This document shows positions 190 to 7,443 of a stretch of 9,108 nt of DNA, one piece after another; position 1 is the stretch's first letter; each line of letters starts with the position of its first letter. Below the pieces are notes generated by a model. It ran no database searches, was not told the origin of the DNA, and was given only the letters and a program-made list of their open reading frames with translations. Source of the DNA: a virus. Its lineage: Monodnaviria > Loebvirae > Hofneiviricota > Faserviricetes > Tubulavirales > Inoviridae. Position numbers and translations under genes: made by a program. The DNA lies in the IMG/VR virus record IMGVR_UViG_2534681834_000001, positions 1-9,108 of that record; one strand, given 5' to 3'.

Positions 190-1416
190 TCATCTTGGTA
201 CTTTGCGAACCTGAAGCATCACAACAATATCTGTCTTAGAATTTTCTGATGAACGTGAGCCAAAAATAGACCAACCAGACGAAGATTTAGAATCCTTCTG
301 CTCTGCAAGGCCGCCTATCAAAATAATATCACCATCATTCATAACAACGTCTGTTGTCACATCTCGCTTTAAAAGCGTCGGAGAATTATTAACGCCAGTA
401 TCAGTTGCAACAAAATTAGAAAGCTGCTGTTGAATGTTCAAATCAATAGCGTTGATTTTAATAGATGGTTTCACTCTAAACAAAACCCCTGAGCTACGAT
501 ACTCAACAGACTGAGTTGAATTATTACCATTAACTGTAACACTACCTAAAACAGGAACATCGGCACCTACAGAAAAAGAAGCCTCTGTATTATTCTTCAC
601 GCGCAATCTTGGCGAAGATACAACAGAAAATCTGTTATCAGTTGAAAGTAATGTATAAATTGCATCAATTGAACCTGTTTTTAAACTCAAAAAATCACCA
701 GAAGTACTAACGTTAGAGCCAAGAGAAATATTAAATTTTTCAGATATAACTTTAGCAGCAAGTAAAAATCCTGAGCCATCATTCTGACCAGTCTGAACCT
801 CAAAAACATATCCTGAAACAACAACCTCATCAGGAACCGTATCAATGGTTGGCAATATGCTTTTGATAATGTCAATATCTTTTTGTGTGCCATAATAAAC
901 AAGAGAATCACCTAACCTATTGAAATTATTAGAAGCCCCTGAAGAAGAAGTACTGGATATGTTAGTGCTTATATTTCCTGAATTTCCAAATTGACCAGAT
1001 ACAAAACCAGAGAGAATATCAGACAAATAACCAACTGAACGATTTAATGGAGAATACACAAAAACCTTTAAAATGGGAGGTTTTTCTTGAGGTTTAAAAG
1101 GCGTTATGTAGTCAACACCTTTTTTTGTATGAATTTTAATGTTCATATTAGAAAAATAACGTTCAATAAAATCACGCTCATTAACATCCTTGGTTATTTT
1201 AAATGAAACAAGTCGTTGGTCATTGGCTAAATCAGGAGAAATCATATAAGGAACCTTAAAAACCTCTGAATAAATCAAAGAAATAGCCTCAGGTAAAGCA
1301 AGCTTTTTTATTTCAAGCTCAGTGGCAGAAAAACAAGAAAAACTAAAAACATCAAGCACATATATATTAAACGTTTCATTTGTCACCACCTGAATAAAAA
1401 GTAACAAGCTCACCAT
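190..1416 (-). CDS. Filamentous-phage pIV-like outer-membrane secretin (virion export channel)
   Basis: Final gene of the module, about 410-430 aa, with a secretin-like C-terminal region (…DGDIILIGGLAEQKD…IVVMLQVRKV) whose architecture matches M13 pIV as I recall it. The track ORF begins at a TTG (1479); the first ATG (1414-1416) has an AGGA RBS about 7 nt upstream, so I place the start at 1416, overlapping the pI stop by about 40 nt. Confidence 0.85.
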   Translation of the reverse strand: MVSLLLFIQVVTNETFNIYVLDVFSFSCFSATELEIKKLALPEAISLIYSEVFKVPYMISPDLANDQRLVSFKITKDVNERDFIERYFSNMNIKIHTKKGVDYITPFKPQEKPPILKVFVYSPLNRSVGYLSDILSGFVSGQFGNSGNISTNISSTSSSGASNNFNRLGDSLVYYGTQKDIDIIKSILPTIDTVPDEVVVSGYVFEVQTGQNDGSGFLLAAKVISEKFNISLGSNVSTSGDFLSLKTGSIDAIYTLLSTDNRFSVVSSPRLRVKNNTEASFSVGADVPVLGSVTVNGNNSTQSVEYRSSGVLFRVKPSIKINAIDLNIQQQLSNFVATDTGVNNSPTLLKRDVTTDVVMNDGDIILIGGLAEQKDSKSSSGWSIFGSRSSENSKTDIVVMLQVRKVPR

Positions 1417-2413
1417 CAACAATTCCTGTAAGTAAAACACCTTGATAATTAAAGGTGGAAGCAGGAACCATGCGGACAAGACCTGAATTATTTGTAATTA
1501 TCACATAGCTACGCCCTTCTCTTTCAAGTTTCCCAACGATACGCCAAGTTGAAGATAATTTAGGTGTATTTGGAATTTCAGGAACTGAATTAAAATTAAC
1601 AGAACGTAAATTAGATTCCTGAGGCGGCAAATCAGAAGCATCACTCTTGACCAAACCACCATTAAAAAACCTATAAAGATAACCAATGCTAAATATGAAA
1701 ATGAGAATCATAGCAAGAACAACAAAATACAAACTTTTCTTGCCTAAAATGCTAGCCCGATTATCAACAGTAAGTTCTTTGCCATCCCCATTCTCATATG
1801 ATTTATACAAAGGGAATATATCTGGATTATATTTCCTCTGATAACTTGTAATTTTGTTTGACTTATAAAGTTTAGAACCATTAAAAACATCGACACGATA
1901 ACGACTCTTCATGCCAATAGCAATATGCTTTTGCATTCTAAAAGTAGTATCTAACCTTGCTTTAATAAAACGAGGTAAAGAAGAAACCTCCTGATTTATA
2001 ACAACAAGGTCACAACAAACACCAGTTTCAATATTAGTAAAATGACGATGCTCGGCAATAAATGAACGATGATTCTCACAAATGGATTTATCACTATCCC
2101 AAATGCGCCAAGATTCATCAATAACAATCAAATCTCCATACTGACAAAATGTATCTTCAGGACGAGAATCTTTATATGGGAAAAAATCATCAGCTTTGAC
2201 ATCATCATTAGAAACATAAACAACATCACCTAAAGATATATCTTTCCCCGATTTTGATTTTTTCATGCAATAAGCATGAATTTTATCTTTATTTATACCG
2301 TAAATATTAGTAACAACACGACGCCCAGAAGAACAAGCAGGTACAATAACACTAGAAACAACCTCGTATGATTTACCACTACCTAAAGAACCAACATAAG
2401 CAGAAATAGGCAT
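1376..2413 (-). CDS. Filamentous-phage pI / Zot-family assembly ATPase
   Basis: N-terminal Walker A motif GSLGSGKS, directly comparable to M13 pI GKLGSGKT, a single internal hydrophobic segment (YFVVLAMILIFIFSIGYLY), about 345 aa, and located between pVI and pIV. The track start at 2425 is a TTG; the ATG at 2411-2413 puts the Walker A at the N-terminus as in pI/Zot. Confidence 0.85.
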   Translation of the reverse strand: MPISAYVGSLGSGKSYEVVSSVIVPACSSGRRVVTNIYGINKDKIHAYCMKKSKSGKDISLGDVVYVSNDDVKADDFFPYKDSRPEDTFCQYGDLIVIDESWRIWDSDKSICENHRSFIAEHRHFTNIETGVCCDLVVINQEVSSLPRFIKARLDTTFRMQKHIAIGMKSRYRVDVFNGSKLYKSNKITSYQRKYNPDIFPLYKSYENGDGKELTVDNRASILGKKSLYFVVLAMILIFIFSIGYLYRFFNGGLVKSDASDLPPQESNLRSVNFNSVPEIPNTPKLSSTWRIVGKLEREGRSYVIITNNSGLVRMVPASTFNYQGVLLTGIVDGELVTFYSGGDK

Positions 2414-2417
2414 AAAA

Positions 2418-2711
2418 CTAACCAATAATCGGAATTCTACGAATAATAAAACGAGTAATATATGCGTTAAATATTAACTGAAAACCTTCATTGAACTTAA
2501 ATAAATCAAAAAAATACCACATAGGAGCAGGTAAAGCTCGAAATAAAGCTGGCACGTTAAAATTAAATGGTATCCATGAAGATAATACATAAATGAACTC
2601 ATGAACAACAAAAAGAAGTCCAAAAAACAAAACAAACCTAATGATAACAGTTCTAAAAATAAAACCTAAAAGAACATTAACGATACTAAATAACAATCCA
2701 AATAAAGCCAT
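2418..2711 (-). CDS. pVI-like minor coat protein (hydrophobic, 97 aa)
   Basis: Highly hydrophobic small protein in the pIII-pI slot, with an ATG start and a GAGG RBS. Its stop lies 4 nt before the pI ATG. Assignment is by position and composition only. Confidence 0.6.
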   Translation of the reverse strand: MALFGLLFSIVNVLLGFIFRTVIIRFVLFFGLLFVVHEFIYVLSSWIPFNFNVPALFRALPAPMWYFFDLFKFNEGFQLIFNAYITRFIIRRIPIIG

Positions 2712-2726
2712 TTTAAAACCTCAATG

Positions 2727-4199
2727 TCACGTAGAAAGCAAAATACGCAAGGAAATTAAAGCCCATATCAAAGAAGAAATGACACCAATAAAAGAACGGT
2801 ATTCCTCCAAAAATACGCAATGCATATCAATAACGTAATCTCTATCAAACACATTAAATTTAGCAACAGGACATGTAGCAGAAAGACCTGATGGACGTAC
2901 TTCTAAATCTCGATACTGATTAAAAAGTTCTTTAATTGGACGAAGTATCTCCTCCGCAGAAGGTGGTGTATCTAGCGTCGGTTCCGGCACGTCTGGATGA
3001 CTAAAATCAGGATTATTTGTACCATTATCAGAACCGCCACCTGACTCACCAGAAGAAAATCCAGGCGCACTAATATTCACATCAGAAGATGGTGAATTTT
3101 GAGCTGGATACATATAATCAAATTCTGTCAAAGAACCATAATTAGGATAAGCAACTTTTATTTCATTCGATGTTACAGGATTTGTTGAAGATACAGGGAC
3201 TCCCTGATAATCTGGCTGGGATGCTGCATCCATTAATAAATTATTTATCATCTTAGCAAGAGTATCCAAATCCATAGGGACTTTCTTTAATCCATCCATA
3301 ACAGAAAACCCATCATCATCAGTTGCCATCTTATAATCAGAAAAAAGAATCTCTAGAGCCTTATCAAAATCCTTATTAAAATACACCTGTATACCCTGAA
3401 TAGGAGTAATAGTAGTAGTTATTGACTCACTATCTGTATTTAAATAAGAAGAAGTATAGCTATATTTTACAGACGAGGCCGCCCCCTCTTGTCCTTCATT
3501 TACCGATAAAATATTCAACTTATAGCTACAAGATTTATCAGGTGCCCGGCAAGTTAAACCACCACCTGATGCAACTGAATTAAAATATCCTTGAGCAACC
3601 CCAGTAACAGAACCTACAATAAATGGCCCCTTACAAGATGTACCATAAGTACATTGCCACCAACGATAACCGGCACTTACCTTATCAACAGTATCATAAC
3701 TATTCATATTAAGTGAGTCAGCACTGATGACAAAAGGATTATCAGGAGTTGGTTCAAAATCTACAGTAAACGTTTTATCACCAAAATTAACCTCCCATTT
3801 ACCGTTACCTAAAGCTTTACCAGATGTGGCAATTAAATAACGACCATTATCAGAAAAATTTTCAGCAGTAAGAGACCCAACGGAATATCCAACTCCAGCC
3901 CATGTCAATGCACCTGAAGCACTACGGAAAAAGCCCTTGCTGGCAATAGATGGCGATTTTGACAACACAGTTTTAGATACTGCTGTAGATGTATTCCTAA
4001 CCATTAATGAATAAGCAGATTCGGTAGTCGTTACCTGAAGAGCTCTAGATGAAATCACCCTACCAAGCACAGTTGGAAGAACTGCCCTAGTTACAAGTAA
4101 AGGATTAGAGTAAACTTTCTGCACTGGAATTAATAAAGAGAAAAAAAATATAAAAAGAGATGTTAAAGCGATAACCCTTTGATTACAGCCCAAGCGCAT
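2727..4199 (-). CDS. pIII-like minor coat / adsorption protein (490 aa)
   Basis: N-terminal signal-peptide-like hydrophobic stretch, Cys-containing N-terminal domains, a Gly/Ser-rich linker (SSGESGGGSDNG) and a C-terminal domain with membrane anchor (…CPVAKFNVFDRDYVIDMHCVFLEEYRSFIGVISSLIWALISL…) that resembles the M13 pIII C-terminus pattern C.P..F…IDC…FR. It sits immediately after the pVIII terminator. Confidence 0.75.
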   Translation of the reverse strand: MRLGCNQRVIALTSLFIFFFSLLIPVQKVYSNPLLVTRAVLPTVLGRVISSRALQVTTTESAYSLMVRNTSTAVSKTVLSKSPSIASKGFFRSASGALTWAGVGYSVGSLTAENFSDNGRYLIATSGKALGNGKWEVNFGDKTFTVDFEPTPDNPFVISADSLNMNSYDTVDKVSAGYRWWQCTYGTSCKGPFIVGSVTGVAQGYFNSVASGGGLTCRAPDKSCSYKLNILSVNEGQEGAASSVKYSYTSSYLNTDSESITTTITPIQGIQVYFNKDFDKALEILFSDYKMATDDDGFSVMDGLKKVPMDLDTLAKMINNLLMDAASQPDYQGVPVSSTNPVTSNEIKVAYPNYGSLTEFDYMYPAQNSPSSDVNISAPGFSSGESGGGSDNGTNNPDFSHPDVPEPTLDTPPSAEEILRPIKELFNQYRDLEVRPSGLSATCPVAKFNVFDRDYVIDMHCVFLEEYRSFIGVISSLIWALISLRILLST

Positions 4200-4250
4200 A
4201 AAAGTCCCCAGAAAAAACTCATTAAATACCAGAAATTTAAAATCATAACC

Positions 4251-4276
4251 AAAAAAAGGGGAGAAACTCCCCTTAC
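4251..4276 (-). terminator. Rho-independent terminator downstream of the major coat gene
   Basis: On the minus strand: AAGGGGAG-TTT-CTCCCCTT followed by a run of T, starting about 10 nt after the pVIII stop. This is the same position as the strong terminator after gene VIII in Ff phages. Confidence 0.7.
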
Positions 4277-4285
4277 CTTAATAGA

Positions 4286-4516
4286 TTAAGCCGATTTAAC
4301 TGTACGAAGAATCCAACGAACGCCAGCAATACCAGCATAAAGTACAACTAATGATGCTGCTACGGCCATAATACCAGTAAGAACAGAACCAAAATCAATT
4401 GAATTGGTAAGTTGACTCAAATCAACCCCTGAAGAAGATGTGCCTGGGTCATCAGCAAAAGAAGGCATAGAAAATGAAGCTGCCAGTAATGAACCTAATG
4501 AAATGATCTTTTTCAT
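4286..4516 (-). CDS. pVIII-like major coat protein precursor
   Basis: From MKKIISLGSLLAASFSMPSFA (signal peptide, AxA-like cleavage before DDPG) the mature ~55-aa protein has an acidic N-terminus, hydrophobic core and basic C-terminus (RWILRTVKSA), the hallmark of inovirus major coat proteins. GGTGG RBS before the ATG at 4514-4516; the track's longer start at 4537 is less likely. Confidence 0.85.
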   Translation of the reverse strand: MKKIISLGSLLAASFSMPSFADDPGTSSSGVDLSQLTNSIDFGSVLTGIMAVAASLVVLYAGIAGVRWILRTVKSA

Positions 4517-4529
4517 AAAAATCCACCAT

Positions 4530-4757
4530 TTATGCATTTCGTATTAACTTGATAATCAAGCTGATGCAATGTGAAAATAAATACAAAGCAACAACCGAAG
4601 TAAAAGCAACCCCCCAATATTGAGCAAATATTGAATAATCAATATCAGAGAATTGCTGGTATGGAATCTCAGAAAAAATTAACTTGACTTCCTTACAGTC
4701 ACCACTGGGTTTAATATCACAAATAGAGGCAATAATAACTTTATCATGAGATTCCAT
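4530..4757 (-). CDS. Small membrane protein (75 aa) at the pVII/pIX position; function unknown
   Basis: Single ORF between pV and pVIII with a C-terminal hydrophobic segment (WGVAFTSVVALYLFSHCISLIIKLI). Ff phages have two ~32-aa proteins (pVII, pIX) in this slot; here there is one longer protein. Assignment is positional only. Confidence 0.5.
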   Translation of the reverse strand: MESHDKVIIASICDIKPSGDCKEVKLIFSEIPYQQFSDIDYSIFAQYWGVAFTSVVALYLFSHCISLIIKLIRNA

Positions 4758-4763
4758 AACTTA

Positions 4764-5036
4764 TCACTTTTCTGCAATAGGAATTAAAACAATCTTACCA
4801 ATACGTAATTTTTGAAAGTCACCAACAAAAATACTGGAAGGATGCAACTGATACAAACCAGCCGGATATGGAGCCTGGCCTTGTTCAAGAGGAATTTTAA
4901 ATAGTTGAGGGTAATCCCCACCGAGGAAAATATAACCAGACTGTTCAGATATCGTATATGGTTTACCAGTGTTCTTAGAAACACCACTACGAGTATCTGC
5001 AACAGCTTGAGTAGGTTTAATTTCAATCTTAATCAT
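4764..5036 (-). CDS. pV-like ssDNA-binding protein (90 aa)
   Basis: The translation MIKIEIKPTQAVADTRSGVSKNTGKPYTISEQSGYIFLGGDYPQLFKIPLEQGQAPYPAGLYQLHPSSIFVGDF… aligns along its length with M13 gene V protein (MIKVEIKPSQAQFTTRSGVSRQGKPYSLNEQLCYVDLGNEYPVLVKITLDEGQPAYAPGLYTVHLSSFKVGQF…, from memory). AGGTG RBS; start 13 nt after the pII stop. Confidence 0.9.
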   Translation of the reverse strand: MIKIEIKPTQAVADTRSGVSKNTGKPYTISEQSGYIFLGGDYPQLFKIPLEQGQAPYPAGLYQLHPSSIFVGDFQKLRIGKIVLIPIAEK

Positions 5037-5049
5037 AATACACCTAATG

Positions 5050-6165
5050 TTAAGCTACACGTAAATAAGACGGCTTTATATACCAAGAAGGAATAACACA
5101 ATCCGAAACAGTTATTTCTCTTGTTTGTTTCACAACAACAGGAGAGAATTTAGAGACATTACATTTTTGAGCAATATCAATACCAATCTTCCTTAACCTT
5201 GCTCGATGTGTCTGGACTTGCTTTTTATTTAAATCAAAAATATGACCGTGAAACCATTGAATTGCATACATGGCTGTAGTATTGGCAGCACGAGTAGTGT
5301 CAACAACACCACGACTAATAAGATGTTCACTAATAGTTTCAAAGTCCATAGCATTCACCGATAACTTTTCATCAAGCTCAAGAAATTCAGAATGTAACTT
5401 ATTTAACAAAGAATAATCAGAAAGTCCCCAATAGCACATGGATTTTTTTTGAAGAAAACGAGACTTTAATTTTTGCTCAAACCTGACAATGCCGTTGTCC
5501 TTGCAGTAATTAATGACATCCATTATATAATTAAATTCTTTAGAATCCTCTGAGAATTTATTTTTGATTTTCGCAAGGCTATGCAACTCAAGCTCATGAG
5601 CTTTGTTATATACTGTTGGGTATATAAGATTGACATTGCCTTTTTTTGAAAGCCAGTCAACGGATTTCCCATTGGAATGCAACCGTGGAATACTATTCCT
5701 GTAAGGTTGAGTAGAAAGACCTGATATATAATCATCCTCATTCCCCTTCCCTACTGATTTGTTTGATGTTATATGCAGTTCTTTAATTAAAGCACCATCA
5801 GTAATCAAATGAGCTTTTTCATTCTCTTTCGATTGTCCAGGCATTAACTTTGTACACTTGGTAAATAAAGGTAATTTCAGTTCAGTTAGAATCTGATTAA
5901 ATACCATGACACAAGCATCTACAGTCGGAAGCCCAAAAAGATTATCAAGACGTCCCCAGCGGGACGGATTTCCAGTCATTTTTAACACTGAACCACGGAT
6001 CGAGATTGAAACAACATCACAGAAAGAGCCACGATGCTGGAAGGTTGGTTGAGATAATGCGCTAGCCTCCCCGCTTTCAAGATGTATACGCTGATAAGCT
6101 ACATCGCTCAGTATCGGCAACTGATAGCCGAAATCCTGTTCGATAGTTAACCAGTCGTAAAACAT
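5050..6165 (-). CDS. pII-like rolling-circle replication initiator (nickase)
   Basis: First and largest gene of the module, directly upstream of pV. The internal segment DNGIVRFEQKLKSRFLQ matches M13 gII SGLVRFEARIKTRYLK (from memory). The track start at 6177 is a TTG; the first ATG (6163-6165) is preceded by a GAGAG RBS. Confidence 0.85.
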   Translation of the reverse strand: MFYDWLTIEQDFGYQLPILSDVAYQRIHLESGEASALSQPTFQHRGSFCDVVSISIRGSVLKMTGNPSRWGRLDNLFGLPTVDACVMVFNQILTELKLPLFTKCTKLMPGQSKENEKAHLITDGALIKELHITSNKSVGKGNEDDYISGLSTQPYRNSIPRLHSNGKSVDWLSKKGNVNLIYPTVYNKAHELELHSLAKIKNKFSEDSKEFNYIMDVINYCKDNGIVRFEQKLKSRFLQKKSMCYWGLSDYSLLNKLHSEFLELDEKLSVNAMDFETISEHLISRGVVDTTRAANTTAMYAIQWFHGHIFDLNKKQVQTHRARLRKIGIDIAQKCNVSKFSPVVVKQTREITVSDCVIPSWYIKPSYLRVA

Positions 6166-6177
6166 AGAATCTCTCAA

Positions 6178-6360: not shown

Positions 6361-6849
6361 ATGGCAGTAGACAAAGAGTGTGCAGAACGTATACGTCTGT
6401 CTATCATCCAAAATTTTACATATGACGATATCGAAAATGAAACAGGTATCAGCGTCAGTACCCTTAAACGGCTGGCTTCTGGAGAAAGGGAACCCAAATT
6501 AATAGAAATCAGGAAGATAGCTAAAGCGACAGGAAAAAATCCGGTATGGTTAGCATTCGGTGAGTCAACCCTGCCTCTGCCTGAGAACCTTGGCGAAGAT
6601 ATGACTGCTTTTGGTTACGGTATGGATTTTAAGTTACAAGGTCATGAAGCAGGTGAAGCGGCGGCGAAAATCCGCCTGATGGCCGCGATCCGGGACATAG
6701 AGAAAGATGATGTTGTTTTTCTGGAAAAATTTATAGACTTGCTGAATCTGGATCGCACAATAAACAGCGTCAAAACCAAACGTTACGGCTACACAGAAGA
6801 AGAAACGCTGAAAAGACTAAACCTTCCCCAGCCGAAGGGGAAAAAGTAA
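6361..6849 (+). CDS. XRE/Cro-CI-type helix-turn-helix transcriptional regulator (putative prophage repressor, 162 aa)
   Basis: N-terminal HTH signature (…TYDDIENETGISVSTLKRLASGEREPKLIEIRKIAKATGKNPVWLAFGE…) typical of phage repressors, with a C-terminal ~90 aa I do not recognise. It is transcribed divergently from pII, like rstR versus rstA in CTXphi, and is noticeably more GC-rich than the structural module. Confidence 0.8.
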   Translation: MAVDKECAERIRLSIIQNFTYDDIENETGISVSTLKRLASGEREPKLIEIRKIAKATGKNPVWLAFGESTLPLPENLGEDMTAFGYGMDFKLQGHEAGEAAAKIRLMAAIRDIEKDDVVFLEKFIDLLNLDRTINSVKTKRYGYTEEETLKRLNLPQPKGKK

Positions 6850-6852
6850 AAA

Positions 6853-6909
6853 TACCGTGGGAAACCACGGTAAAGTTCGGGTGTCACAGAACCCCGAACC
6901 GCTTCGCGG
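6853..6909 (+). other. Three consecutive GC-rich stem-loops immediately after the regulator stop (terminator-like, or ssDNA origin/packaging hairpins)
   Basis: TACCGTGG-GAAA-CCACGGTA (6853-6872; 8-bp stem with a GNRA-type loop), GTTCGGG-N11-CCCGAAC (6875-6899), and CCGC-TTC-GCGG (6899-6909). None is followed by a T-run, so they are not classical intrinsic terminators. Confidence 0.4.
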
Positions 6910-7348
6910 TACAAATTTTAACCAAATGAAGAAAAAAAGACCATGCTTAAAAAAGATGGAAAAAGGAAAAAATAGTTGTTATTGAAAAAGCCAACTGCTT
7001 AGACTGCGAACAATTATCAGAAAGAATAGTTGAAAAAATCAAAGAGACAGAAGCATTAATAGAATGCCCTATTGGAGAACTGGACTTTCAATACATCGTC
7101 ATGAATGAAGCCAAAGCATATGCTATAAGAAAAAGAAAAAGATTTATATTTCAAAGGGTTAGCATATGATTTTGAAGGGGGTGAAAAAGCAGAATGGACA
7201 AGAAATTTAAGGGATGCACTCATATTCGATGATGAAAGAAAAGCAGCAATGATGATAAGGATAATGACATTCCCAAGAATGAATTATGAAATAGTTCCTT
7301 TAATCTACAAAGTAGATCCTCTATTCAAATCTGAAAAATAAAAATTTT

Positions 7349-7375
7349 GGTACGCACAATGGCGTTATGTATAAA
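7349..7375 (+). other. dif-like XerC/XerD site A (phage attP-type, degenerate)
   Basis: GGTACGCACAA-TGGCG-TTATGTATAAA against E. coli dif GGTGCGCATAA-TGTATA-TTATGTTAAAT (from memory): XerC arm 9/11, XerD arm 8/11, 5-nt central region. It lies in inverted orientation to site B on the other side of the hairpin. Confidence 0.5.
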
Positions 7376-7413
7376 AAGGCCGCTGCCGGATGAAAGTCTA
7401 GCAGCGGCCTTTT
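7374..7413. terminator. Perfect 13-bp stem-loop, bidirectional terminator-like; core of the putative attP forked hairpin
   Basis: AAAAGGCCGCTGC (7374-7386), 14-nt loop, GCAGCGGCCTTTT (7401-7413). A GC-rich stem with a T-run on either strand, about 105 nt downstream of the hipA stop, so it likely terminates hipBA transcripts and plus-strand transcripts from the phage side. Confidence 0.6.
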
Positions 7414-7443
7414 CAACATAACGCATACTACATTATGCGCACC
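7411..7443 (-). other. dif-like XerCD recombination site B (host-type XerC arm; putative prophage-chromosome junction at dif)
   Basis: Minus strand reads GGTGCGCATAA-TGTAGTATGCG-TTATGTTGAAA: the XerC arm is 11/11 to E. coli dif and the first 4 nt of the central region (TGTA) also match, then it diverges; a XerD-like arm (9/11) follows after an 11-nt rather than 6-nt central region. It is about 75-110 bp downstream of the hipA stop, where I recall the chromosomal dif of E. coli K-12 to lie. Confidence 0.6.

Follow-up and report, generated by a model that had tools for sequence, protein, structure and literature searches.

The window analysed here, a stretch of 9,108 nucleotides, carries a filamentous (inovirus) prophage on its minus strand that adjoins chromosomal hipBA. 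The prophage genes and associated features are as follows.

6361-6849, divergent HTH regulator, followed by chromosomal hipBA
5050-6177, minus strand, pII
4764-5036, minus strand, gene V for the ssDNA-binding protein pV (Pfam PF02303 Phage_DNA_bind, E=1.4e-23)
4530-4757, minus strand, 75-aa ORF, a member of phrog_3679
4286-4516, minus strand, gene VIII for the major coat protein pVIII, a 76-aa precursor starting MKKIISLG (Phage_Coat_B, E=3e-4; phrog_2186, E=3.7e-24)
4256-4274, minus strand, intrinsic terminator 3′ of gene VIII with an 8-bp stem, a 3-nt loop and a run of T
4163-4246, minus strand, 27-aa membrane ORF (MILNFWYLMSFFWGLLCAWAVIKGLSL), past the gene VIII terminator and ahead of gene III
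2727-4199, minus strand, gene III-like adsorption protein (pIII) of 490 aa (phrog_3942, E=1.8e-82)
190-2711, minus strand, remaining structural and export module (pVI-like, pI/Zot, pIV), with its members on the next three lines
2418-2711, minus strand, pVI-like protein (DUF2523)
1376-2425, minus strand, pI/Zot
190-1479, minus strand, pIV secretin

The longest ORF for gene VIII would begin at 4537 (MHKWWIFMKK…). The ATG at 4516 is indicated as its start by a GGTGGA ribosome-binding site, the signal-peptide shape of the product and the way a relative is annotated in RefSeq, and with this start the 75-aa ORF and gene VIII do not overlap.

The 75-aa ORF is a real gene under purifying selection rather than a chance ORF. 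Compared with a 91%-identical relative, it carries 9 synonymous and 8 non-synonymous differences (dN/dS ~0.20), and the other two frames across it are closed by 3-11 stops. Comparison with related inovirus genomes, which the sequence-only reading of this DNA had proposed, finds homologues in the same slot in 24 other loci. The ORF begins with an ATG 6 nt past the gene V stop and ends just upstream of gene VIII. Given this spacing and the lack of a clear Shine-Dalgarno sequence, its translation is likely coupled to that of gene V. Two overlapping alternative-frame ORFs (28 aa, 4556-4642; 34 aa, 4513-4617) were set aside, as the corresponding frames in distant relatives are not hydrophobic or not open.

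The protein matches phrog_3679 (function unknown; E=5.2e-15) over nearly its whole length, residues 2-75 aligning with positions 2-88 of the 88 in the profile. When 1.8 billion representative proteins are searched exhaustively with phmmer, 17 relatives appear at E<=1e-3. Profile searching, another of the proposed follow-ups, retrieves 107 protein clusters at E<=1e-3, all of them “hypothetical” and none with a Pfam domain, from Escherichia, Providencia, Orbus, Burkholderia, Paraburkholderia, Pandoraea, and Trinickia. Pfam itself yields no match at E<=10 for the window protein or for any of 22 family members (Phage_Coat_B PF05356 included), and NCBIfam yields none for the 75-aa protein. A PDB sequence search with the family profile finds no f1 pVII, pIX, or pVIII chains; its matches are spurious WD40 “WGVAFS” repeats only. 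Foldseek comparison of the AF2 model with the PDB gives nothing below E=5. The sequence-only reading did not recognise the sequence, which is fair as regards relatives in Pfam, NCBIfam, and the PDB, but the family and the layout are present in the CUS-1 prophage, and the layout in the Vibrio phage VGJφ. The gene thus adds an ordinary new member to an existing but uncharacterised family, and its layout has been recorded before. The literature searched contains no virion proteomics, genetics, or other experiments on any phrog_3679-type family member.

Among 50,697 phage records, tblastn returns a single weak match, Dulem virus 53 (E=0.4), which on inspection proves to be a genuine member of the family and shares its gene layout, the tiny ORF included. 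Dulem virus 53 (locus L032, 2193-2407) also has two extra hydrophobic small ORFs (27 and 43 aa) between the DNA-binding gene and its 80-aa family gene.

Two regions can be distinguished in the 75-aa protein.

4638-4757, minus strand, residues 1-40, the acidic N-terminal region, which varies across the family and is predicted to form a beta-hairpin
4533-4637, minus strand, conserved C-terminal module, residues 41-75, a single long helix with a basic tail (KLIRNA)

The ORF between pV and pVIII had been described as having two Cys in a soluble N-terminal part and a C-terminal transmembrane segment; the sequence shows both Cys and one C-terminal hydrophobic stretch, for which the AF2 model gives a helix. 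The Cys residues, Cys13 (4719-4721) and Cys21 (4695-4697), belong to ASICDIKPSGDC near the N-terminus. Structure prediction, also among the proposed follow-ups, gives a confident helix at residues 41-74 (AF2 with a 20-sequence alignment, pLDDT 86-94) and a low-confidence beta-hairpin with strands at 6-13 and 21-28 (pLDDT ~60), whose loop has Cys13 on one side and Cys21 on the other. Across the family alignment, a variable N-terminal region of ~28-90 residues precedes a conserved 37-residue module with the consensus (D)IDYSxxAQxWGVAFTSVxxLYLFSHxIGLILKxVRNA. In the 89 members in which the helix could be placed, the N-terminal region holds exactly two Cys in 77, spaced 5 to 35 residues apart. This region has a negative net charge in 97% of the 89 (mean -3.5), while every one of them has a positive net charge over its last eight residues.

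The sequence of the 75-aa protein contains no signal peptide or N-terminal hydrophobic leader. An acidic N-terminal region followed by a helix with a basic tail suggests a single-pass protein with N-out/C-in topology, the way all Ff coat proteins are oriented before they assemble (PMC10175506). The N-terminal region would then be periplasmic and exposed on the virion, and Cys13 and Cys21 are expected to form a disulfide, oxidised in the periplasm.

In the Ff phages and their relatives (M13/f1, If1, IKe, and I2-2), the same slot between gene V and gene VIII encodes pIX (32-33 aa) and pVII (29-33 aa), each a single helix without a signal peptide. The conserved module of the 75-aa family, at 37 aa, is close to them in length. 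The 75-aa protein differs from pVII and pIX by an extra 40-residue soluble N-terminal region, and the slot holds one gene instead of two. A fusion of pVII and pIX, one of the explanations offered by the sequence-only reading, does not fit. There is one hydrophobic segment, and the 40 residues before it are soluble and acidic with two Cys. No in-frame internal start would give a small membrane protein, as the only ATG, GTG, or TTG codons in frame after Met1 are those at Leu58 and Leu67, both within the helix. Likeness to pVII was not detected either (hhalign P=0.12 for the family against phrog_7781, with no PHROG or Pfam match).

The same reading had contrasted a single protein at this locus with the two of Ff phages. 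The slot does hold one gene, but a search for a second tiny ORF finds the 27-aa membrane ORF at 4163-4246, on the other side of gene VIII, overlapping the start of gene III by 37 nt. Of the 25 loci carrying the 75-aa family, 24 have an ORF with its motif, FLWGLLCAWAVIQGL, in the same position; the exception is a degenerate second prophage copy with a frameshifted tiny ORF. That copy (locus L020, 3226-3898, the second of two) also has a truncated gene III (215 aa) and looks to be decaying. The 27-aa ORF shows 7 synonymous changes against 1 non-synonymous, and the motif hardly differs between E. coli and Paraburkholderia. Searching with a degenerate DNA pattern of this motif identifies 32 viral contigs. 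All ten new contigs found this way that include upstream sequence encode a 75-aa family member between pV and pVIII, despite differing pV/pII types.

The 27-aa ORF is not annotated in the RefSeq records examined, and its product has no match to Ff pVII/pIX, PHROGs, Pfam, or NCBIfam. Its conservation means that these phages do have two small membrane proteins besides pVIII, whose genes flank gene VIII rather than both lying upstream of it. The 27-aa protein is likely the second small coat or assembly protein. As its gene adjoins gene III, it may belong to the other virion end.

The closest named relatives come from CUS-1, a prophage of E. coli UTI89, which encodes an 83-aa member (“membrane protein”; WP_000381239) in the same pV-pVIII slot and a tiny ORF before pIII. 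CUS-1-type members are 83-89 aa long and are annotated as ‘membrane protein’ or ‘hypothetical protein’ (phrog_3679, E=9e-33 for the 89-aa form). The window protein is ~35-45% identical to them overall, with an N-terminal region that differs in sequence and length. YpfΦ of Yersinia pestis reportedly shares 99% identity with CUS-1 across 7.1 kb, and position is the basis on which its YPO2276-2278 genes have been assigned to morphogenesis (PMC4266046).

A more distant parallel is found in VGJφ, where the gene order ORF112 (pV), ORF81, ORF44 (coat), ORF29, and ORF493 (pIII) matches that of the window. ORF81 shares the architecture of the 75-aa protein: two Cys in a soluble N-terminal part, then a C-terminal membrane helix with a basic tail. 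Both ORF81 and ORF29 are annotated ‘putative minor capsid protein’, on position only, and hhalign finds no significant sequence likeness to either (P=0.14 for ORF81, P=0.03 for ORF29). A further candidate for comparison, φLf gVII, a genetic interactor of the packaging signal, was rejected because it belongs to the Ff-like two-ORF layout and not to that of the 75-aa type.

A natural exchange of modules in E. coli shows to which part of the genome the 75-aa gene belongs. Five E. coli prophages share the pII, pV, and regulator of the window at 98-99% identity, and the likeness stops at 4751, within the first codons of the 75-aa ORF. In UTAK-3, the one inspected of the five, pII and pV are 98.9% identical to those of the window and the structural module is different. 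Its slot (locus L030, 6675-7012) holds a 33-aa pVII-like ORF (…FIGGVITGRR) and a 52-aa hydrophobic ORF before the coat gene, and there is no tiny ORF ahead of gene III. This swap places the 75-aa gene in the structural module and amounts to an exchange of the 75-aa gene and tiny ORF pair for a pair of classic small ORFs.

In the loci examined, the slot of the 75-aa family is always the one that separates gene V from gene VIII. Essentially all of these loci also have the tiny WGLLCAWAV ORF ahead of gene III, and the two co-occur whichever serves as search query. Strict co-inheritance ties the gene to gene VIII and the tiny ORF in loci that encode at least three different kinds of pV and several of pIII. 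Near-identical 89-aa versions are even paired with different pIII proteins of 414 and 627 aa.

Co-inheritance of this kind bears on the possibility that the 75-aa protein is not structural. PfsE of Pf4 (PA0721, 30 aa) is a superinfection-exclusion factor that binds PilC and blocks type IV pili; virions are produced without it (PMC8764522). Pf4 is an integrative inovirus, and the gene for this small membrane protein occupies the same slot, flanked by the ssDNA-binding gene and the coat gene. By this precedent, the 75-aa protein could be a superinfection-exclusion or host-modulating protein of the inner membrane, acting on the host envelope through its periplasmic Cys-stapled region and outside virions. 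The high variability of the N-terminal region in sequence and length is what host-specific pressure would be expected to produce. However, PfsE is likened to the 75-aa protein by position and has no N-terminal domain. The part conserved in the 75-aa family is the membrane helix with its pVIII-like basic tail, not the exposed region, and the gene is inherited strictly together with gene VIII and the tiny ORF while pV and pIII vary, with near-identical versions alongside different pIII. An unrelated membrane protein of this sort, which the sequence-only reading had also put forward, therefore has its precedent in PfsE but fits the coat-like C-terminus and the co-inheritance less well, and is unlikely.

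The C-terminus of the 75-aa family resembles that of its neighbour, pVIII. Its last 22 residues align with the pVIII C-terminus with an hhalign score of 24.1 (P=4.7e-5). Shuffling of columns gives a mean of 9.4 (sd 2.2, maximum 18.3), with 0 of 200 shuffles reaching the observed score, and the reversed sequence scores 10.2. A gapless, end-anchored comparison of the last 22 columns gives 28.5 against a null of -14.5 (sd 7.6; z ~5.7), and among shifts of -6 to +6 register 0 alone is positive. The shared end-to-end pattern is S..LY....G....IL+.V+.A, and an ID[FY] motif 38 residues from the end possibly also matches pVIII in the same single register. The N-terminal half of the helix has no significant likeness to pVIII (p=0.19). 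Ff pVIII, which has the same design of membrane helix and basic tail, scores only 10-12 against either the 75-aa family or the local pVIII family, so architecture alone does not account for the match. The score also exceeds that of the local pVIII family against the VGJφ coat protein (20.5). Over 12 residues, cognate pVIII C-termini score modestly higher than non-cognate ones (20.7 versus 18.5; permutation p=0.003, with relatedness ignored). In the window, the DNA of the 75-aa gene and that of gene VIII are not alike. The pVIII-like 22 residues could reflect an old duplication or convergence.

Such a resemblance raises the question of whether the 75-aa protein is a pVIII paralogue, an alternative coat subunit with a display domain, sparse along the filament or at either end, rather than a tip protein that initiates assembly. 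The single-register match of the last 22 residues, possibly with ID[FY], and a score above that linking the local pVIII family to the VGJφ coat protein would suit such an origin. In contrast to the pVIII of the same phages, the 75-aa protein has no signal peptide, a different N-terminal half, no significant likeness in the N-terminal half of its helix, and probably low expression, as its weak ribosome-binding site and coupling to gene V suggest. The module swap, moreover, makes it the positional equivalent of pVII/pIX. On this evidence an alternative coat subunit is decidedly unlikely.

Against the tip proteins of Ff phages themselves, the family gives a weak hhalign match to pIX (phrog_10143; P=0.0019, probability 14%) that falls short of any safe threshold; it spans 21 columns, in a register consistent at the C-terminus. 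Ff pIX (M13, If1, IKe, I2-2) in turn has a C-terminus that weakly resembles that of its own pVIII (If1 SILVFKKLSEVST versus GIKLFKKFVSRAS; hhalign P=0.011). The first layer of the f1 structure has pIX and pVIII alternating about the pVII bundle, their N-termini pointing outward and their basic C-termini facing the DNA (PMC10175506).

The reading preferred here, at a probability of roughly 0.6, is that the 75-aa protein is a minor coat protein of the leading virion tip that packs in the manner of pIX and has the 27-aa protein as its partner. It is based on sequence and gene order, from which we infer virion incorporation, tip location, and the partnership with the tiny protein. In the CUS-1/YpfΦ-type lineage, the 75-aa protein would most likely take the functional place of Ff pIX, or of pVII/pIX. 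A low level of the protein would be made through coupling to gene V. Lacking a signal peptide, it would enter the inner membrane with its acidic N-terminal region facing out and its basic C-terminus facing in, and its two Cys would join as a periplasmic disulfide. At the pI/pIV export site, the C-terminal helix would pack against pVIII helices, facing the DNA. For this it would use the same C-terminal surface and basic tail as pVIII, much as f1 pIX alternates with pVIII. Packing of the helix among pVIII would, as proposed here, leave the variable N-terminal hairpin displayed at the tip.

A membrane protein at the export site might instead assist assembly and be released, not built in, for example by recruiting the packaging signal or pVIII to the pI/pIV machine. 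Integrative inoviruses do use assembly factors absent from Ff phages, such as PSB15 (bioRxiv 10.1101/2024.03.19.585677), and a basic cytoplasmic tail could contact DNA. In the 75-aa protein, however, this tail has just ~6 residues, while the paired Cys and the acidic region face the periplasm, where a DNA-recruiting factor would have no need of them. An assembly factor of this kind is very improbable.

The leading-tip reading draws on the slot position, the module swap, the pVIII-like C-terminus, the Cys and charge pattern found throughout the family, the co-occurrence with the tiny ORF, the f1 precedent, and the VGJφ annotation. Together these make it the best supported explanation, and the idea of a replaced tip protein, already raised from sequence, is favoured by position, predicted topology, pVIII likeness, and module swap over the others raised with it. 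Several points count against it. The likeness to pIX is weak and that to pVII absent, and the pVIII likeness spans 22 residues and could be convergent. By analogy, PfsE in the same slot of Pf4 is dispensable for virions. The proposed partner, the tiny ORF, adjoins gene III and may have its place at the opposite virion end. The model of the N-terminal region, at pLDDT ~60, is of low confidence.

A bolder extension of the leading-tip reading may be entertained tentatively. The leading end of CUS-1/YpfΦ-type phages could be capped by a two-protein set non-homologous to Ff pVII/pIX. One member would be an ancient pVIII offshoot or mimic that lost the signal peptide and gained a hypervariable, disulfide-stapled tip domain; the other would be the strongly conserved 27-residue protein missed by annotation. 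If so, the displayed domain could give the virion end a host- or environment-facing function.

To our knowledge, structures of the leading-tip proteins that start filamentous-phage assembly are known for Ff phages only. The 65-130-aa family and the 27-aa gene provide two concrete tip-protein candidates for integrative inoviruses, among them the virulence-linked YpfΦ of Y. pestis and CUS-1 of E. coli K1. They come with a testable rationale, namely that the C-terminus of the 75-aa family copies that of pVIII. What is modestly new is this pVIII-like C-terminus and the unannotated tiny gene; the family (phrog_3679, CUS-1) and the layout (VGJφ) were already known. If confirmed, the assignment would improve annotation of the CUS-1/YpfΦ-type inovirus group and reveal a natural tip display site that tolerates inserts of 30-90 residues.

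The whole element is present in 1 of 5,426 complete E. coli genomes, that of strain 300709, at ~89% identity. There the prophage (locus L001, 1-11761) occurs as tandem copies beside hipBA, next to hipA. In the window, dif-like sequences lie between the prophage and hipA at 7352-7380 (GGTACGCACAATGG…) and 7416-7443 (reverse complement of GGTGCGCATAATGTAGTATG), a position that suggests XerCD-mediated integration at dif. The canonical E. coli dif was not found when up to 3 mismatches were allowed. Between the phage regulator and the dif-like sites, positions 6850-7340 are A-rich and without a long ORF, and may be the site of decayed accessory genes.
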